In this document: positions 8,935-62,622 of the stretch, one piece after another
Layout of the letters: each line of letters opens with the position of its first letter
Position numbering within the stretch: position 1 is the stretch's first letter
Source of the DNA: Candidatus Woesearchaeota archaeon
GTDB lineage: Archaea; Nanobdellota; Nanobdellia; SCGC-AAA011-G17; GW2011-AR18
Direction: 5' to 3'
NCBI GenBank assembly: GCA_018302765.1
Contig: JAGVZG010000004.1
Coordinates: 16,878-80,877, forward strand
Length of the DNA: 64,000 nt
Program-made: the position numbers and the translations under genes
The notes under the pieces: generated by a model
Seen by the model: only the letters and a program-made list of their open reading frames with translations
What the model was told of the DNA's origin: nothing
Database searches by the model: none

Positions 8935-9075
8935 AGCGCGGGGAGGGAAATTCGTAAACTTTTTTGTTAAGGAAGTTTAGTTCGAACCCCCAATCTGTTG
9001 CTGTCTTCTTTATTATAGCTATTAGTTCATAATAGCAAACTGCAGGCAACTGCCTTGCCGTTGGGCCACCCGCGC
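8935..9075 (-). tRNA. tRNA-Cys(GCA) with two introns: 37/38 (9003-9039, 37 nt) and 59/60 (8949-8980, 32 nt)
   Basis: Spliced 72-nt cloverleaf GCGCGGG TG GCCC AACGGCA AGGC A GTTGC CTGCAGA GCAAC AGATT GGGGG TTCGAAT CCCTC CCCGCGC T; U73; the T-loop intron has a perfect BHB (TTCG/CGAA helix). Confidence 0.93.
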
Positions 9076-12399: not shown

Positions 12400-12566
12400 T
12401 GGCGGGCCCGACGAGAATTTCATGAACGTTTCTTTCAAATAAAAGTTCTTTTGAACTCGCGACCCTCTGCTAGCTTCCATATAGCTAGAAGGCAGATGCG
12501 CTATTAGCCCACCTTCTTTCGTGAACATTTCTTCCTAAGAAAGGTTCCAGGCTGCGCTACGGGCCC
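12400..12566 (-). tRNA. tRNA-Arg(TCT) with three introns: 19/20 (12505-12546, 42 nt), 37/38 (12472-12485, 14 nt) and 59/60 (12417-12449, 33 nt); CCA encoded
   Basis: Spliced 78 nt GGGCCCG TA GCGC AGCCTGGATA GCGC A TCTGC CTTCTAA GCAGA GGGTC GCGAG TTCAAAT CTCGT CGGGCCC G CCA; BHB helices GCCT/GGGC, CTTC/GAAG, TTCA/TGAA. Confidence 0.93.
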
Positions 12567-17248: not shown

Positions 17249-17407
17249 ACTATCAAAACATGATTATTTATTTTTAAACCTTTCCTTTCACAAATGATTG
17301 TATAAGTTAGTTAGATATTTCTCCTTAGTTTATGATTTTGGTTTCTCTTCTAACTTAAAATAGCCTGTGGATAATTTTATAAATTATTTGTATTTATATT
17401 CTATAAA

Positions 17408-17928
17408 ATGGTTTTAGATATACTTCAATTAGAACGTGCAAGAGCTGTTAATAGTATGCTGGGCGGTAGAAGAACTCAAGCAAACTATATGACTCCAGAG
17501 AACAGGCATTTTCTAGAGACTCTGTAATTGTATTAGAGCTTGGTGAAAGAGTTTTAGAATTTGACTCTGGACGAATATTTTATGGCAATACAAAATGGAG
17601 TTTACACTCTTATGGAGCATTTCAAAATAATCAACTACAAGATGCTGCAGAATATTTATTAAGTCATCATTTACCTCCACCAAGTATTCGAGATTCTGTC
17701 AATAGAATTATTGCTGATTTAAATGGCTCTGGAATTGATAGATCAAGAATCTCAGTTGTCTATCCCAAAGGAAGACCAGACCAGCCCAAATTAAGAAACT
17801 TGGACATTCCTAGTAGAGAAATTAGACTTAGTGCGCTTGACCCTTGCACTATAAATTGTTTTGAAGATAATAAAAGCCAAGGTTTAACGGACTGCCAAGG
17901 AGCAGTTATGTACTTACGTGATTTATGA
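17408..17928 (+). pseudogene. Frameshifted hypothetical gene absent from the ORF track
   Basis: ATG at 17408 in a frame that stops at 17527; an overlapping frame is open from 17470 to TGA 17928 (153 codons, no early ATG). Confidence 0.55.
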
Positions 17929-17942
17929 CATAGTTATTTTAG

Positions 17943-32030: not shown

Positions 32031-33119
32031 ATGGAATTTATTATACAGAATGCATTGCAGAATGTGGAATCTACAATAGATCCAGACGTGCAAATAGGAA
32101 GAGCTAGTATTAAAGTTATTGGTGTTGGCGGTGGTGGAAGCAATATGACTACCTGGTTATATAAAAAAGGAGTCAGGGGTGCTGAAGTTGTTGCTATGAA
32201 TACTGACAAACAGCATTTAGATATGATGAGTGCTGATAAAAAAATCCTAATAGGAAGAGACTTAACAAGAGGTTTAGGAGCTGGAGGCTATGCTAATGTT
32301 GGTATGGAAGCTGCAAAAGAACAACTTCCAGAAGTTAAAGATTCTCTTAAAGGAGCAGACATGGTATTTGTTTGCGCTGGTATGGGTGGAGGAACTGGTA
32401 CTGGAGCAGCACCAGTAGTTGCACAAGCAGCTCGTGATGTTGGAGCTATTGTTATAGGTACAGTAACTAGCCCATTCTCAATTGAAAGAGCAAGAGTTGA
32501 TAAAGCTGAATTTGGGTTGCAGCAATTAAGAGCAGTTTCAGATACTGTAATTGTAATTGACAATAACAGACTAGTACAAATTGCAGGAAATTTACCTGTA
32601 CAACAAGCTTTTGCTGTAGCAAATGAACTAGTTGCTACAATGATTAAAGGGATTGTTGAAATAATTGCAGTACCTAGTCTTGTTAATTTAGACTACGCAG
32701 ATGTAAAAGCAATAATGACAAATGGTGGCGTATCTGTTGTTGGCGTAGGTGAAAGTGATGGCGAGAGAAGAGTAGAAGAAGCAACAAAAAGGGCTTTAAC
32801 AAATCCACTATTAGATGTAAGTTACAAAGGCGCTACAGGTGCTCTAATTCATGTAACTGGTGGACCTGATATGACTCTTGATGAAGTAAACAGAGTAGGT
32901 GAGTTAGTTACAGAAACTCTAGATCCTGATGCAAATTGCATTTGGGGAGCAAGAGTTGAAGACTCTATGAAAGGCAAAATAAGAGTTATGTCAATCATTA
33001 CAGGCGTTCAAAGTCCATATGTCTTGGGTAAAACTCTTAGTTCAACACAAAGCTTTGAGAAATCTAAGACAATGAGCAGAGAATTAGGAATTGACGTAGT
33101 GCATGGAAAACGTTATTAA
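32031..33119 (+). CDS. ftsZ: Cell division protein FtsZ
   Basis: VIGVGGGGSN, GMGGGTGTGAAP tubulin signature, NLDYADV. Confidence 0.98.
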   Translation: MEFIIQNALQNVESTIDPDVQIGRASIKVIGVGGGGSNMTTWLYKKGVRGAEVVAMNTDKQHLDMMSADKKILIGRDLTRGLGAGGYANVGMEAAKEQLPEVKDSLKGADMVFVCAGMGGGTGTGAAPVVAQAARDVGAIVIGTVTSPFSIERARVDKAEFGLQQLRAVSDTVIVIDNNRLVQIAGNLPVQQAFAVANELVATMIKGIVEIIAVPSLVNLDYADVKAIMTNGGVSVVGVGESDGERRVEEATKRALTNPLLDVSYKGATGALIHVTGGPDMTLDEVNRVGELVTETLDPDANCIWGARVEDSMKGKIRVMSIITGVQSPYVLGKTLSSTQSFEKSKTMSRELGIDVVHGKRY

Positions 33120-33189
33120 ATAAATTATGCTTTAGGGCCTAAATGTAGAACTTCTTTTTTCTACCCCCTGCCCTAGAGACCCTCTATAA

Positions 33190-33228
33190 GGCTAAAGTCT
33201 GGTTCCCCTGGACTTTAGTCCTTTTTTT
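33190..33228 (+). terminator. Stem-loop followed by a T-run downstream of ftsZ
   Basis: GGCTAAAGTC/GACTTTAGTC 10-bp stem then CTTTTTTT. Confidence 0.45.
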
Positions 33229-43803: not shown

Positions 43804-43915
43804 TGCCCCGCGCGAGATTTGAACTCGCGTCAGAGCCTTTCTCCTTTTGCTTAAGCTTTTTCTAAAGGCTTATTTCGAGAGGGCTCTATCCTTGACCGGG
43901 CTAGACGAGCGGGGC
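43804..43915 (-). tRNA. tRNA-Glu(CTC) with one 37/38 intron (43839-43875, 37 nt)
   Basis: Spliced 75 nt GCCCCGC TC GTCT AGCCCGGTCAA GGAT A GAGCC CTCTCGA GGCTC TGAC GCGAG TTCAAAT CTCGC GCGGGGC A; BHB central helix CTCT/GGAG. Confidence 0.92.
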
Positions 43916-45761: not shown

Positions 45762-45866
45762 CGGGCCCGACGGGATTCGAACCCGCGGCCATCTGATTAA
45801 GAGTCAGATGCTTTCGGCAATTTTGAATTTTATTCTGAAATTACTACCAAGCTGAGCTACGGGCCC
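45762..45866 (-). tRNA. tRNA-Lys(CTT) with one D-arm intron at about 22/23 (45813-45843, 31 nt)
   Basis: Spliced 74 nt GGGCCCG TA GCTC AGCTTGGTA GAGC A TCTGA CTCTTAA TCAGA TGGCC GCGGG TTCGAAT CCCGT CGGGCCC G; helix TGGT/GCCG, inner stem AATTT/AAATT. Confidence 0.92.
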
Positions 45867-55100: not shown

Positions 55101-55961
55101 ATGGCAATAATTTTACCAGGCTATAATGCTGCATTTGAAGATAAAGTTTATTGTAGAGATAGAACTGTTGATACTCAAAGAGGACATGTAGTAGTTAGTG
55201 AAATTGTTATTCTTGAAAGATATACAGAACCAACTGAAGATGGAGTTGTAAATTATCTAAGAGAAGTTGCAAGAAAAGTAGATCCTATAGCTTCATTAGA
55301 GTTGCCTGATAGCACTAAATTTGAAGGAAAGTCACCTTTAGAGGAATTCGTAATGAAATTACCTAAATCTGTAAGAATGCATTTAATATCTGGACGTAAT
55401 GAGTACTTGAATTTTGTTAGAAAAAATACATCTGCAAGAGCTCTTTCAGAAGGAGAAAATCCCAATAATTTTGTACAAGCTATGTATGGTTTACTCACTC
55501 CAGTAATTATTAGTAATAATTTTGAAATGATAAATGATATGAAACATAAGTGGTATGATGCCGCACTGTCAAATAAAAAATTTCTAGAACACAGTTTAGG
55601 ATATAAACTTCAAGTAGACATTTTGTTATATGATGAAGTTTTGCCTTCTAAAATTGAGATGAATATATTATTAAAACATAAAGTTTCTGTTTCTAGAAGC
55701 CTTATAGTACAAGGGACTGCACCTGAAGATGGCGATGTTGAAAGACTTATTGAATTACTATATTCAGGATTAGATACTCCTGATAAAATTGAATATTTAG
55801 AAGATCATTCAAAATACAGACTTGAAGAAGCCTCAATTCAACCAGTTATTAATTTATTAGATGCTGCTGCTAGACAACAAGCTCAAGCTCAAACGTTATT
55901 AGACCGTCTAAAAAGTGGCGCTGGCAGAGGGTCTGGCGGGCATGGCGGTCTTATTTGCTAG
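55101..55961 (+). CDS. Hypothetical protein
   Basis: 286-aa ORF with a Gly-rich C-terminus. Confidence 0.6.
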   Translation: MAIILPGYNAAFEDKVYCRDRTVDTQRGHVVVSEIVILERYTEPTEDGVVNYLREVARKVDPIASLELPDSTKFEGKSPLEEFVMKLPKSVRMHLISGRNEYLNFVRKNTSARALSEGENPNNFVQAMYGLLTPVIISNNFEMINDMKHKWYDAALSNKKFLEHSLGYKLQVDILLYDEVLPSKIEMNILLKHKVSVSRSLIVQGTAPEDGDVERLIELLYSGLDTPDKIEYLEDHSKYRLEEASIQPVINLLDAAARQQAQAQTLLDRLKSGAGRGSGGHGGLIC

Positions 55962-56198
55962 ATATTTCTATTTGTATATAATATAATATATATTTCATAA
56001 TTTGGGTGTGGACGACAAGACAATAAGCTTGCACATAAGACTATTAAAATAAATTGTCTTAATTATTTTATGGAAGAAAATATATATTTTTTGCAATTAC
56101 TAAAAAAGAAATTAGTGTTTAAGCTTGTTTTTGAAAAATCTCATTTTAGCTACAAGTTAAAATTTCTAATGAAAATATTTTAATATTTAAAAATTATA

Positions 56199-56435
56199 GA
56201 GGATAGCGGGGGCTTCCCGAAATGACATATTGTCAATTTTCTTTGGATTTGAACCAACGACCCATCCGTGCTAAAGCAATTCGGGTATCGCAAAGAGTGC
56301 GTACTCTTTATGAGCCTTCCGCAGTAAGACATTTGTCGTTACTTCGACGGACATTTAGGTTTTTTATAAAAAACTCCTAGCTGTCCTACCCGTATAGACT
56401 CAAGGTTCGCTATGGTATCAGCTTCCCCTATCCTC
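56199..56435 (-). repeat. Inverted repeat bracketing the tRNA-iMet precursor
   Basis: Leader GAGGATAG-GGG (56435-56425) is complementary to CCC-G-CTATCCTC (56210-56199). Confidence 0.8.
56204..56411 (-). tRNA. Initiator tRNA-Met(CAT) with six introns: 4/5 (56392-56407), 20a/21 (56354-56373), 29/30 (56317-56344), 37/38 (56287-56308), 44/45 (56263-56279), 64/65 (56213-56242)
   Basis: Seven exons (4, 18, 9, 8, 7, 20, 9 nt) give AGCGGGG TA GGAC AGCTAGGAGT GTCC G TCGGG CTCATAA CCCGA AGGTC GTTGG TTCAAAT CCAAC CCCCGCT A (75 nt): A1-U72 pair, G29G30G31/C39C40C41; each junction falls two nt into a BHB-type bulge. Confidence 0.92.
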
Positions 56436-56460
56436 TGCATCACAAAAGATAATAAAACTT

Positions 56461-56468
56461 CTTATAAA
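56461..56468 (-). promoter_or_regulatory. TATA box of tRNA-iMet, displaced upstream
   Basis: TTTATAAG at -57..-50 from mature +1; the -30..-23 window reads GATGCAGA. Confidence 0.6.
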
Positions 56469-61981: not shown

Positions 61982-62266
61982 ATGGCATCAGAAACAATAC
62001 AAATAAACAAAGAAAAAGTAAAACATTCCCCTACGCTAAACACTGTCCTTATGGTAGAGGAAGTTTTGAAAAATGTCGGGGAGCTAATTACGGTTGCAGA
62101 ATTAAAAAGAAAACTTCCAAAAAAAGTAATGCACCAAACACTAATAGAAATTCTTGATTACTTGCAATTTAGTGGAAAAATAATAATTGGGACTAAAGGA
62201 ATTTTGTGGATATTTACAGAAAGAAAAGAATTAGAAGCAATGATTAATAGAGGAACAGAATTATGA
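61982..62266 (+). CDS. Winged-helix protein (putative antitoxin)
   Basis: HSPTLNTVLMVEE...LKRKLPKKVMHQTL..ILDYL..SGKI; stop overlaps the toxin ATG. Confidence 0.65.
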   Translation: MASETIQINKEKVKHSPTLNTVLMVEEVLKNVGELITVAELKRKLPKKVMHQTLIEILDYLQFSGKIIIGTKGILWIFTERKELEAMINRGTEL

Positions 62267-62622
62267 ACAAACCTGTAAGGGTGATAATCGTAGATGAAGC
62301 AGAAATAGAGTTCAAAAAACTGAATGAAATTGTTGGTCAACAAATTCGAGAAGGAAAAGATAACAGTGAGGAAATACAACTATTAAAATCTATAAAACAA
62401 AAAGTAGAATTTGTCAAAGCTAATCCTTTTTACGGAGATAATATAACTAAGAAATTAATACCAAATAAATACAATGTTCAAAATTTATGGAGAGTTGAAC
62501 TTACTCATTTTTGGAGGATGTTATACACAATAAAAGGAGACCAAATAGAAATAATTTGTTTTGTTCTTGATATAATTGATCATAATAAATATAATAAAGT
62601 ATTTGGATATAATAAAAGATAA
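62263..62622 (+). CDS. RelE/ParE-like toxin
   Basis: NLWRVELTHFWRMLYTI...VLDIIDHNKYNKVFGY. Confidence 0.65.
   Translation: MNKPVRVIIVDEAEIEFKKLNEIVGQQIREGKDNSEEIQLLKSIKQKVEFVKANPFYGDNITKKLIPNKYNVQNLWRVELTHFWRMLYTIKGDQIEIICFVLDIIDHNKYNKVFGYNKR

Follow-up and report, generated by a model that had tools for sequence, protein, structure and literature searches.

Short introns bounded by bulge-helix-bulge (BHB) motifs are a known kind of element in archaeal tRNA genes, and tRNAscan-SE 2.0 (2021) reports archaeal tRNA genes with up to three of them (PMC8450103). In the Thermoproteales (Pyrobaculum, Thermofilum, Caldivirga) such introns, with BHB or relaxed BHB motifs, lie at canonical and non-canonical sites and are removed by the endonuclease EndA with subsequent ligation, and some must go before a neighbouring BHB can form (PMC8450103); the stated maximum is three introns per gene and the average 0.84. 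In the Asgard archaea Atabeyarchaeia and Freyarchaeia, as far as the available parts of a 2024 paper and its supplement go, 92-95% of the tRNA genes carry introns, over half carry several, many of the sites are non-canonical, and tRNAscan-SE undercounts them and manual or R2DT curation is needed; the highest count is four, given in Supplementary Data 4, where the table columns end at intron 4, and the initiator tRNA-Met (iMet) has three (PMC11291895). Up to three BHB-like introns, in the D-arm, the anticodon loop and the T-arm, are also found in the nucleus of Cyanidioschyzon merolae, a red alga, and in cryptophyte nucleomorphs, which are eukaryotic, where several genes are permuted as well and where stepwise intron removal was shown by reverse transcription PCR (PMC3728597, PMC4090602). 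We describe here the iMet gene on a 64-kb stretch of Candidatus Woesearchaeota DNA (contig JAGVZG010000004.1, positions 16,878 to 80,877; in the following "the window", whose own numbering is used throughout). Judged by its sequence, this is very probably a functional initiator tRNA gene that is split into seven exons by six short BHB introns. The kind of element is not new; what is new is its degree, with six introns here, up to seven in relatives and an exon of 4 nt, and a putative scaffold formed by the 5' leader.

A first reading of the DNA (the original prediction) had taken three introns per tRNA gene as the previous maximum and had proposed the locus as a candidate record. The former figure is out of date, as four are tabulated for the Asgard genes in the part of PMC11291895 that is available, and the window gene is not the record holder, since the orthologues L003, L143 and L144 have seven introns each. 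Searches of the open-access literature brought up no tRNA gene with an intron count above four, which is not proof of absence.

The host is a tiny groundwater-type archaeon of the Woesearchaeota (DPANN). The window is archaeal, with genes for aIF5B, an ATP-dependent DNA ligase, GatD/GatE, LeuRS, L7Ae and S28e and a GC content of 29%. The endonuclease V (EndoV) gene, 660 nt from the iMet gene, has its nearest relatives in metagenome-assembled genomes (MAGs) of Candidatus Woesearchaeota. Besides the intron number, the lineage separates this case from the Thermoproteales; PMC5829648 reports the EndA of this lineage to lack the crenarchaeal L1 loop.

The iMet gene occupies 208 nt of the minus strand, from 56411 down to 56204, and consists of exons of 4, 18, 9, 8, 7, 20 and 9 nt and introns of 16, 20, 28, 22, 17 and 30 nt. 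In Sprinzl numbering the junctions fall at 4/5, 20a/21, 29/30, 37/38, 44/45 and 64/65, and every exon and intron coordinate was checked base by base. Exon 1 (56408..56411) is the tetranucleotide AGCG, tRNA positions 1-4, and is followed by intron 1 (16 nt, site 4/5, 56392..56407), whose central helix ATAG/CTAT is built from leader nucleotides -2 and -1 together with A1 and G2. Exon 2 (56374..56391, GGGTAGGACAGCTAGGAG) provides positions 5-20a and is separated by intron 2 (20 nt, site 20a/21, 56354..56373; central helix TAGG/CCTA, internal T5/A5 hairpin) from exon 3 (56345..56353, TGTCCGTCG, positions 21-29). Intron 3 (28 nt, site 29/30, 56317..56344) has the central helix CCGT/GCGG and an internal hairpin AGTAA..TTACT. 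Exon 4 (56309..56316, GGCTCATA, positions 30-37) includes the anticodon CAT and precedes intron 4 (22 nt, 56287..56308), which lies at the canonical site 37/38 (38/39 is equivalent), with the helix CTCA/TGCG (3/4 paired) and the internal hairpin AGAGT/ACTCT. Exon 5 (56280..56286, ACCCGAA, positions 38-44) is followed by intron 5 (17 nt, site 44/45, 56263..56279; CCCG/CGGA, 3/4; internal hairpin TGC/GCA), exon 6 (56243..56262, GGTCGTTGGTTCAAATCCAA, positions 45-64) by intron 6 (30 nt, site 64/65, 56213..56242; ATCC/GGGA, 3/4; internal hairpin GAAA..TGACA/TGTCA..TTTC), and exon 7 (56204..56212, CCCCCGCTA, positions 65-73) ends the gene with CCA not encoded.

The spliced product is 75 nt long (AGCGGGGTAGGACAGCTAGGAGTGTCCGTCGGGCTCATAACCCGAAGGTCGTTGGTTCAAATCCAACCCCCGCTA) and is called by ARAGORN as tRNA-Met(cat) with a perfect cloverleaf in which all four stems are intact. 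Its features are the A1-U72 pair, pairing of G29-G31 to C39-C41, a D-loop of 10 nt that includes G18 and G19, and the T-loop TTCAAAT. A1-U72 and three consecutive G-C pairs at 29-31:39-41 are identity features of initiator tRNAs, and both are present in the window gene and invariant across nine aligned orthologues. Introns make up 64% of the gene, and the shortest exon is the 4-nt exon 1. The seven exons are colinear within 208 nt behind a single TATA-like box, so that this is not a split, trans-spliced gene, and their order is that of the mature tRNA, so that it is not a circularly permuted one.

The six introns share one geometry. Nucleotides -6 to -3 of the 5' exon pair with intron nucleotides L-5 to L-2, forming a 4-bp helix between two 3-nt bulges, and at all six introns both junctions come after the second nucleotide of a bulge. 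Three of the central helices (introns 1 to 3) are fully paired and three (introns 4 to 6) have one mismatch, giving 21 pairs in 24 positions, against a mean of 11.1 for a null of random sites of the same lengths in the AT-rich window (P ~2e-5). The pairing is specific to the register, as sliding the 3' strand by 1-4 nt either way leaves only 3-12 pairs. Given the mature sequence, four of the six boundaries have a single possible placement; for the remaining two a shift of one nucleotide leaves the product unchanged. An intron-side hairpin lies beside the bulge in introns 2-6 (intron 1 has two pairs), and RNAfold gives a stable stem in introns 3-6 only. On the exon side a good outer helix is available to intron 1, where the leader provides it, and to intron 4 after the removal of intron 3. 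A second BHB geometry, in which intron nucleotides 2-5 would pair with nucleotides +2 to +5 of the 3' exon, was rejected, with 1-3 of 4 pairs at each intron and 10/24 overall as against 21/24. All that the original prediction had read from the sequence, namely seven exons and six introns, the CAT anticodon, A1-U72, the three G-C pairs, the T-loop and the six 4-nt helices with junctions two nucleotides into 3-nt bulges, is present exactly as described; its interpretation as an archaeal initiator tRNA gene with six BHB-type introns is supported too, decisively so by the comparison with related genes.

Fifteen orthologous iMet genes could be modelled from Woesearchaeota MAGs and further metagenome contigs, which makes sixteen with the window gene. 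They form a series from one to seven introns: one in L001 and L002, two in L005, three in L004, L140 and L141, four in L012, L127 and L139, five in L066, six in the window, L138 and L142, and seven in L003, L143 and L144. The introns occupy at least ten sites (4/5, 15/16, 20a/21, 29/30, 37/38, 42/43, 44/45, 53/54, 59/60 and 64/65); at shared sites presence or absence is exact, and all sixteen genes splice to near-identical 75-nt tRNAs. In nine products taken together 100% of the cloverleaf cells are paired, and sliding the partners reduces pairing to 32-53%. Compensatory changes are seen at six pairs, several of which connect exons separated by introns. Over all 69 introns of the sixteen genes 248 of 276 central-helix positions are paired. 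Two boundaries had to be corrected: the T-loop intron of L004 was initially placed with 0/4 central pairs, and a one-nucleotide equivalent slide gives 4/4; the D-loop intron of L066, also 0/4 at first, gives 3/4 and a 75-nt product in a re-reading by hand.

Site by site, the 4/5 intron is found in eight of the sixteen genes (window, L003, L012, L138, L139, L142, L143 and L144), with a compensatory change in its central helix, ATAG/CTAT in the window and GTAG/CTAC in L003. Site 20a/21 is also occupied in L003, L004, L012, L142, L143 and L144, site 44/45 in nine other orthologues, and site 64/65 in L003, L138, L142, L143 and L144. Intron 3 of the window is clearly homologous to those of L012 and L142 (the local alignment with L012 scores 22), and the intron 3' end TGCGGAA is kept in most orthologous introns at 29/30. 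When the introns of nine genes were compared all against all, those at different sites showed no convincing resemblance, the best match being a 13-nt AT-rich one between window intron 6 and the D-loop intron of L005; there is therefore no evidence for recent intron transposition. All six introns of the window gene recur in L003 and three of them in L012, and a neighbour-joining tree of EndoV places the window beside L005 and L001, which have two introns and one. This is a weak, single-gene tree; if it is roughly right, both gains and wholesale losses of introns would have occurred.

As the original prediction had expected, standard scanners are silent at the locus: ARAGORN makes no call there whether its intron mode is on or off, and a match to the Rfam tRNA model is absent both at the gathering threshold and at E<=10. 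Genes with two introns or more all escape both programs. Among eight loci Rfam detects only the two one-intron orthologues, at about 52 bits with RF00005 (52.5 bits for L002). Over-fitting is a real danger when six deletions are free, and for this reason a dynamic-programming aligner that allows for splicing was written (match +2, mismatch -2, intron -7). The locus scores 108 when the query is the spliced sequence of the window itself, while the rest of the window, cut into about 510 chunks of 500 nt on both strands, scores 9.9 +/- 6.6 with a maximum of 39, which is another tRNA. Since that query is circular, the mature iMet of the one-intron L002 was used as an independent one; the alignment again yields these six introns, now at a score of 88 over a background that averages 16.3 +/- 6.0 and has a maximum of 39. 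A pattern scan of metagenomes (TGTCCGTCG N20-50 GGCTCATA) returned 120 stretches, almost all of them chance matches and only L066 and L127 real. L023, which scores 64, was rejected as a bacterial tRNA-Met region with absurd "introns".

These figures bear on the possibility that the gene is an illusion, six free deletions making almost any 208-nt stretch look like a tRNA. The aligner does build spurious genes in unrelated DNA, with 6-11 arbitrary "introns" and scores of 30-56 (64 for L023), but the real locus stands at 88-108 over a window background of 10-16 +/- 6, the BHB pairing appears in the correct register only, and the same sites recur in fifteen independent orthologues, so that we give over-fitting next to no credence. 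Hardly more can be said for the idea that the introns were created by an assembly error or a chimera. The metagenomic source speaks for it. The exact EndoV protein is found on contigs of many assemblies, and four of them (ENA ERZ27254745, ERZ28564412 and ERZ27254852 and JGI 3300009296) have the window sequence unchanged over 331 nt that comprise the gene with its flanks, which excludes misassembly because the four assemblies are independent, and homologous introns occur in assemblies of other species.

Other observations do weigh against a working six-intron gene and have to be set beside this evidence. A splice-aware scan found no second iMet within the window, but it spans 64 kb of the genome, so that an uninterrupted copy may exist elsewhere, and the transcription, splicing and use of the present copy are predicted from sequence. 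Three of the six central helices contain a mismatch, and introns 2, 3, 5 and 6 have a weak outer helix on the exon side or none. The BHBs do not appear in the unconstrained minimum free energy (MFE) fold of the precursor, and to impose the six together takes about 26 kcal/mol. Genes for EndA and RtcB were not found among the window open reading frames (ORFs) scanned. The first of these points would suit a decaying or redundant paralogue whose inserts are tolerated junk while a normal iMet elsewhere does the work. We consider this quite improbable, because a dead copy would not preserve products, compensation, BHB register and synteny. Purifying selection on the exons is strong, the mature iMet of the window being identical to that of L003 although the neighbouring EndoV proteins are only 64-66% identical; the stem changes among the nine tested orthologues are all compensatory; the BHB core is in exact register at every insert; and the gene is syntenic and the only iMet found in each of those loci that were scanned in full. 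The structural points suit better a refinement that is compatible with a functional gene, namely that some of the sites at introns 2, 3, 5 and 6, which are relaxed (HBh'-like) motifs because their exon-side helix is weak or absent, need an obligatory order of removal, an accessory factor or an unusual EndA. The mismatches, the cost of six simultaneous BHBs and a modelled cheapest order in which introns 5 and 6 go first and the canonical intron last all lean that way. The core motif of two 3-nt bulges around 4 bp, with an intron hairpin, is however present at every site, and relaxed hBH and HBh' motifs are known substrates of broad-specificity EndAs (PMC4090602, PMC5829648), so that such a special route seems to us rather unlikely, though far less so than a dead copy.

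For a functional initiator gene with six introns the part played by the leader deserves attention. A TATA-like box, TTTATAA, preceded by an A-rich AAAAGC resembling a B recognition element, can be read at 56462..56468 on the minus strand, about 57 nt upstream of tRNA position 1, and would act as the promoter. The distance goes with the first intron: in all eight genes with the 4/5 intron a TATA-like box lies at -57 to -59 (in L012 as the variant CTTATAA at about -57, outside the search pattern), while in seven of the eight genes without it the box lies at about -30, six of these matching the pattern and L002 having CTTATAA. The additional leader contains two pairing segments. The distal one, AGAGGATAGGGG (56425..56436), pairs with the tRNA 3' end and the trailer (RNAduplex dG -20.6 kcal/mol), where the opposite strand CTATCCTCT (56198..56206) consists of C71, T72, A73 and 6 nt of trailer and overlaps exon 7 by 3 nt; the helix can be written as AGAGGATAG(GGG) with (CCC)G CTATCCTCT. 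The proximal one, GCTGATACC (56414..56422), pairs with the stretch GGTAGGACAGC of exon 2 and would form the outer helix of the intron-1 BHB, as pairing and co-variation indicate. In the window the regions concerned are thus 56414-56436 and 56198-56206. The duplex of leader with 3' end and trailer reaches -20 to -26.5 kcal/mol in 8/8 genes with the 4/5 intron, and an equivalent helix is absent in 8/8 genes without it (-2.8 to -6.8 kcal/mol). The leader helices co-vary between species, with a leader C opposite G7 in the window, a T opposite A7 in L012 and a U opposite A11 in L139.

From this we infer that the intron-1 BHB receives its outer helix from the leader, which would also keep the 4-nt exon 1 in place for ligation; in that case RNase P could cut at A1 only after intron 1 has been spliced out. 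The strict link of the 4/5 intron to the leader suggests both a scaffold mechanism and an enforced processing order. The closest analogy is with the split and tri-split tRNAs of Nanoarchaeum equitans and Caldivirga maquilingensis, in which a complementary leader/trailer helix beside the BHB holds the pieces together for EndA and ligation (PMC4090602), and the window leader helices plausibly hold exon 1 as those helices hold their pieces. In contrast to the split tRNAs, the window gene would give a single transcript in normal order that is spliced in cis, and the helix joins the leader to its own 3' end and trailer. Involvement of flanking sequence in BHBs is known in principle, as tRNAscan-SE 2.0 adds 60 nt to its candidates so as not to miss BHBs formed with the flanks (PMC8450103). 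In the parts of the literature available we found no description of a leader-trailer scaffold of this kind, and the accessible portions of the Asgard study describe none (PMC11291895). The wider claim, that a subclade of Woesearchaeota has taken tRNA fragmentation beyond any described case (up to seven introns and eight exons, at least ten iMet sites, exons down to 4 nt) and has added a dedicated cis-acting leader scaffold that forces splicing before RNase P, has in our judgement about an even chance of being right.

The maturation of the window iMet may be pictured as follows. Transcription from the TATA box would give a precursor of about 270 nt, in which base-pairing of the leader to the 3' acceptor strand plus trailer, to exon 2 and to intron 1 would complete a full hBHBh' motif for the 4/5 intron. 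An archaeal EndA, presumably of the broad-specificity DPANN type, would cut each BHB, at twelve bulge sites in all, and RtcB would join the exon ends, exon 1 probably remaining tethered by the leader until its ligation. RNase P and 3' trimming would then finish the ends, and the CCA, not being encoded in the gene, would be added enzymatically. In the RNAfold energy model a single BHB core costs 2.5-8.8 kcal/mol relative to the MFE fold, and the much larger cost of all six together suggests, as far as the model can be relied on, stepwise rather than simultaneous removal; as unconstrained folds do not reproduce the BHBs, MFE structures were used for cost estimates only. The anticodon-stem helix flanking the canonical intron is complete only once intron 3 is out. 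The window ORFs that were scanned include no gene for RNase P. In relatives, RtcA (Pfam RTC) is encoded within a few kb of iMet and EndoV (L141 7184-8206, L142 7612-8622, L143 8141-9154), as is, near the same two genes, the RNase P subunit Rpr2 (L142 10296-10571, L143 10349-10630); the window ends before the equivalent region.

The same intron architecture is found in four further tRNA genes of the window, all on the minus strand. Two of them were located through GC-rich islands in intergenic DNA and are missed by ARAGORN and Rfam. The first, at 12566..12403, is a tRNA-Arg(TCT) gene whose three introns measure 43 nt (D-loop), 14 nt (37/38) and 33 nt (59/60); in the third the central helix TTCA/TGAA is perfect. 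The gene encodes CCA and its spliced product is called tRNA-Arg(tct). The D-loop insert, whose central helix is weak, might consist of two introns, one nested in the other. The second is a tRNA-Cys(GCA) gene with two introns (9075..8935), 37 nt at 37/38 and 32 nt at 59/60 (TTCG/CGAA, 4/4), whose spliced product is called tRNA-Cys(gca). A tRNA-Glu(CTC) gene (43915..43804) has one canonical intron of 37 nt. In a tRNA-Lys(CTT) gene (45866..45762) a single 31-nt intron lies after G22, at the 3' end of the D-loop, with the central helix TGGT/GCCG; ARAGORN in intron mode miscalls this gene as tRNA-Phe(aaa), and Rfam matches only model positions 10-63. The window thus holds 13 introns in five tRNA genes within 64 kb, which makes heavy tRNA fragmentation look genome-wide, the iMet gene being its extreme.

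Some neighbouring features were recorded as well. In five relatives, L140, L141, L144, L139 and L066, ORFs related to LAGLIDADG_3 (PF14528) stand directly beside the iMet gene (L140 3444-4277, L141 4005-4817, L144 4053-4679, L139 1-202, L066 315-986 and 1368-2042). With a cut-off of 22.5 bits, the matches in L140 and L141 reach 28-31 bits and the one in L144 reaches 21, and in L066 such ORFs flank the gene on both sides. This could be plain synteny or a free-standing homing endonuclease that targets the gene. The window ORF in the corresponding position, 55101-55961, was considered as such an endonuclease and rejected; it belongs to an unrelated family, without Pfam or PDB match and with an hhalign probability of 0.3%. 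At 33106-33222 on the plus strand lies a GC-rich structured intergenic element of about 115 nt ending in a T-run, with hairpins GTAGAA/TTCTAC and TAGAG/CTCTA, a long GGCTAAAGTC...GGACTTTAGTCC stem and no Rfam match, which may be an unannotated small RNA. A two-gene cassette at 61982-62622, also on the plus strand, whose second ORF has weak matches to ParE/YoeB-like toxins, is probably a toxin-antitoxin pair; MazE/PemK and HicA pairs are found at similar positions in the related loci L143, L144 and L137. Finally, 694 nt at 17249-17942 contain no ORF of at least 90 aa and have a coding-like composition, and may represent a disrupted gene or several short ORFs.

The limit known for introns in one tRNA gene is raised by these genes from three, the usual figure, or four, in the Asgard supplementary data, to six and seven, and an RNA that is essential and has a single function can be encoded by a gene that is 64% intron and has an exon of 4 nt. 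PMC5829648 reports an L3 loop in the EndAs of DPANN archaea that goes with increased disruption of tRNA genes, and reads the incomplete tRNA sets of these archaea as a sign of hidden disrupted genes. The finding predicts that the EndA of this lineage has a very broad specificity, which would make it a useful enzyme, and genes hidden in this way would explain why DPANN genomes often appear to be without some tRNAs. Since ARAGORN and Rfam miss iMet, tRNA-Arg and tRNA-Cys outright, inferences of completeness or auxotrophy that are based on the tRNAs of such MAGs would be wrong. If the wider claim for the subclade is true, its leader would be a new processing element and would bring a new ordering rule for tRNA maturation, and the subclade would be a natural system for the study of how BHB introns are gained and lost, a question for which the series of one to seven introns, with homologous introns at fixed sites, is a ready data set.

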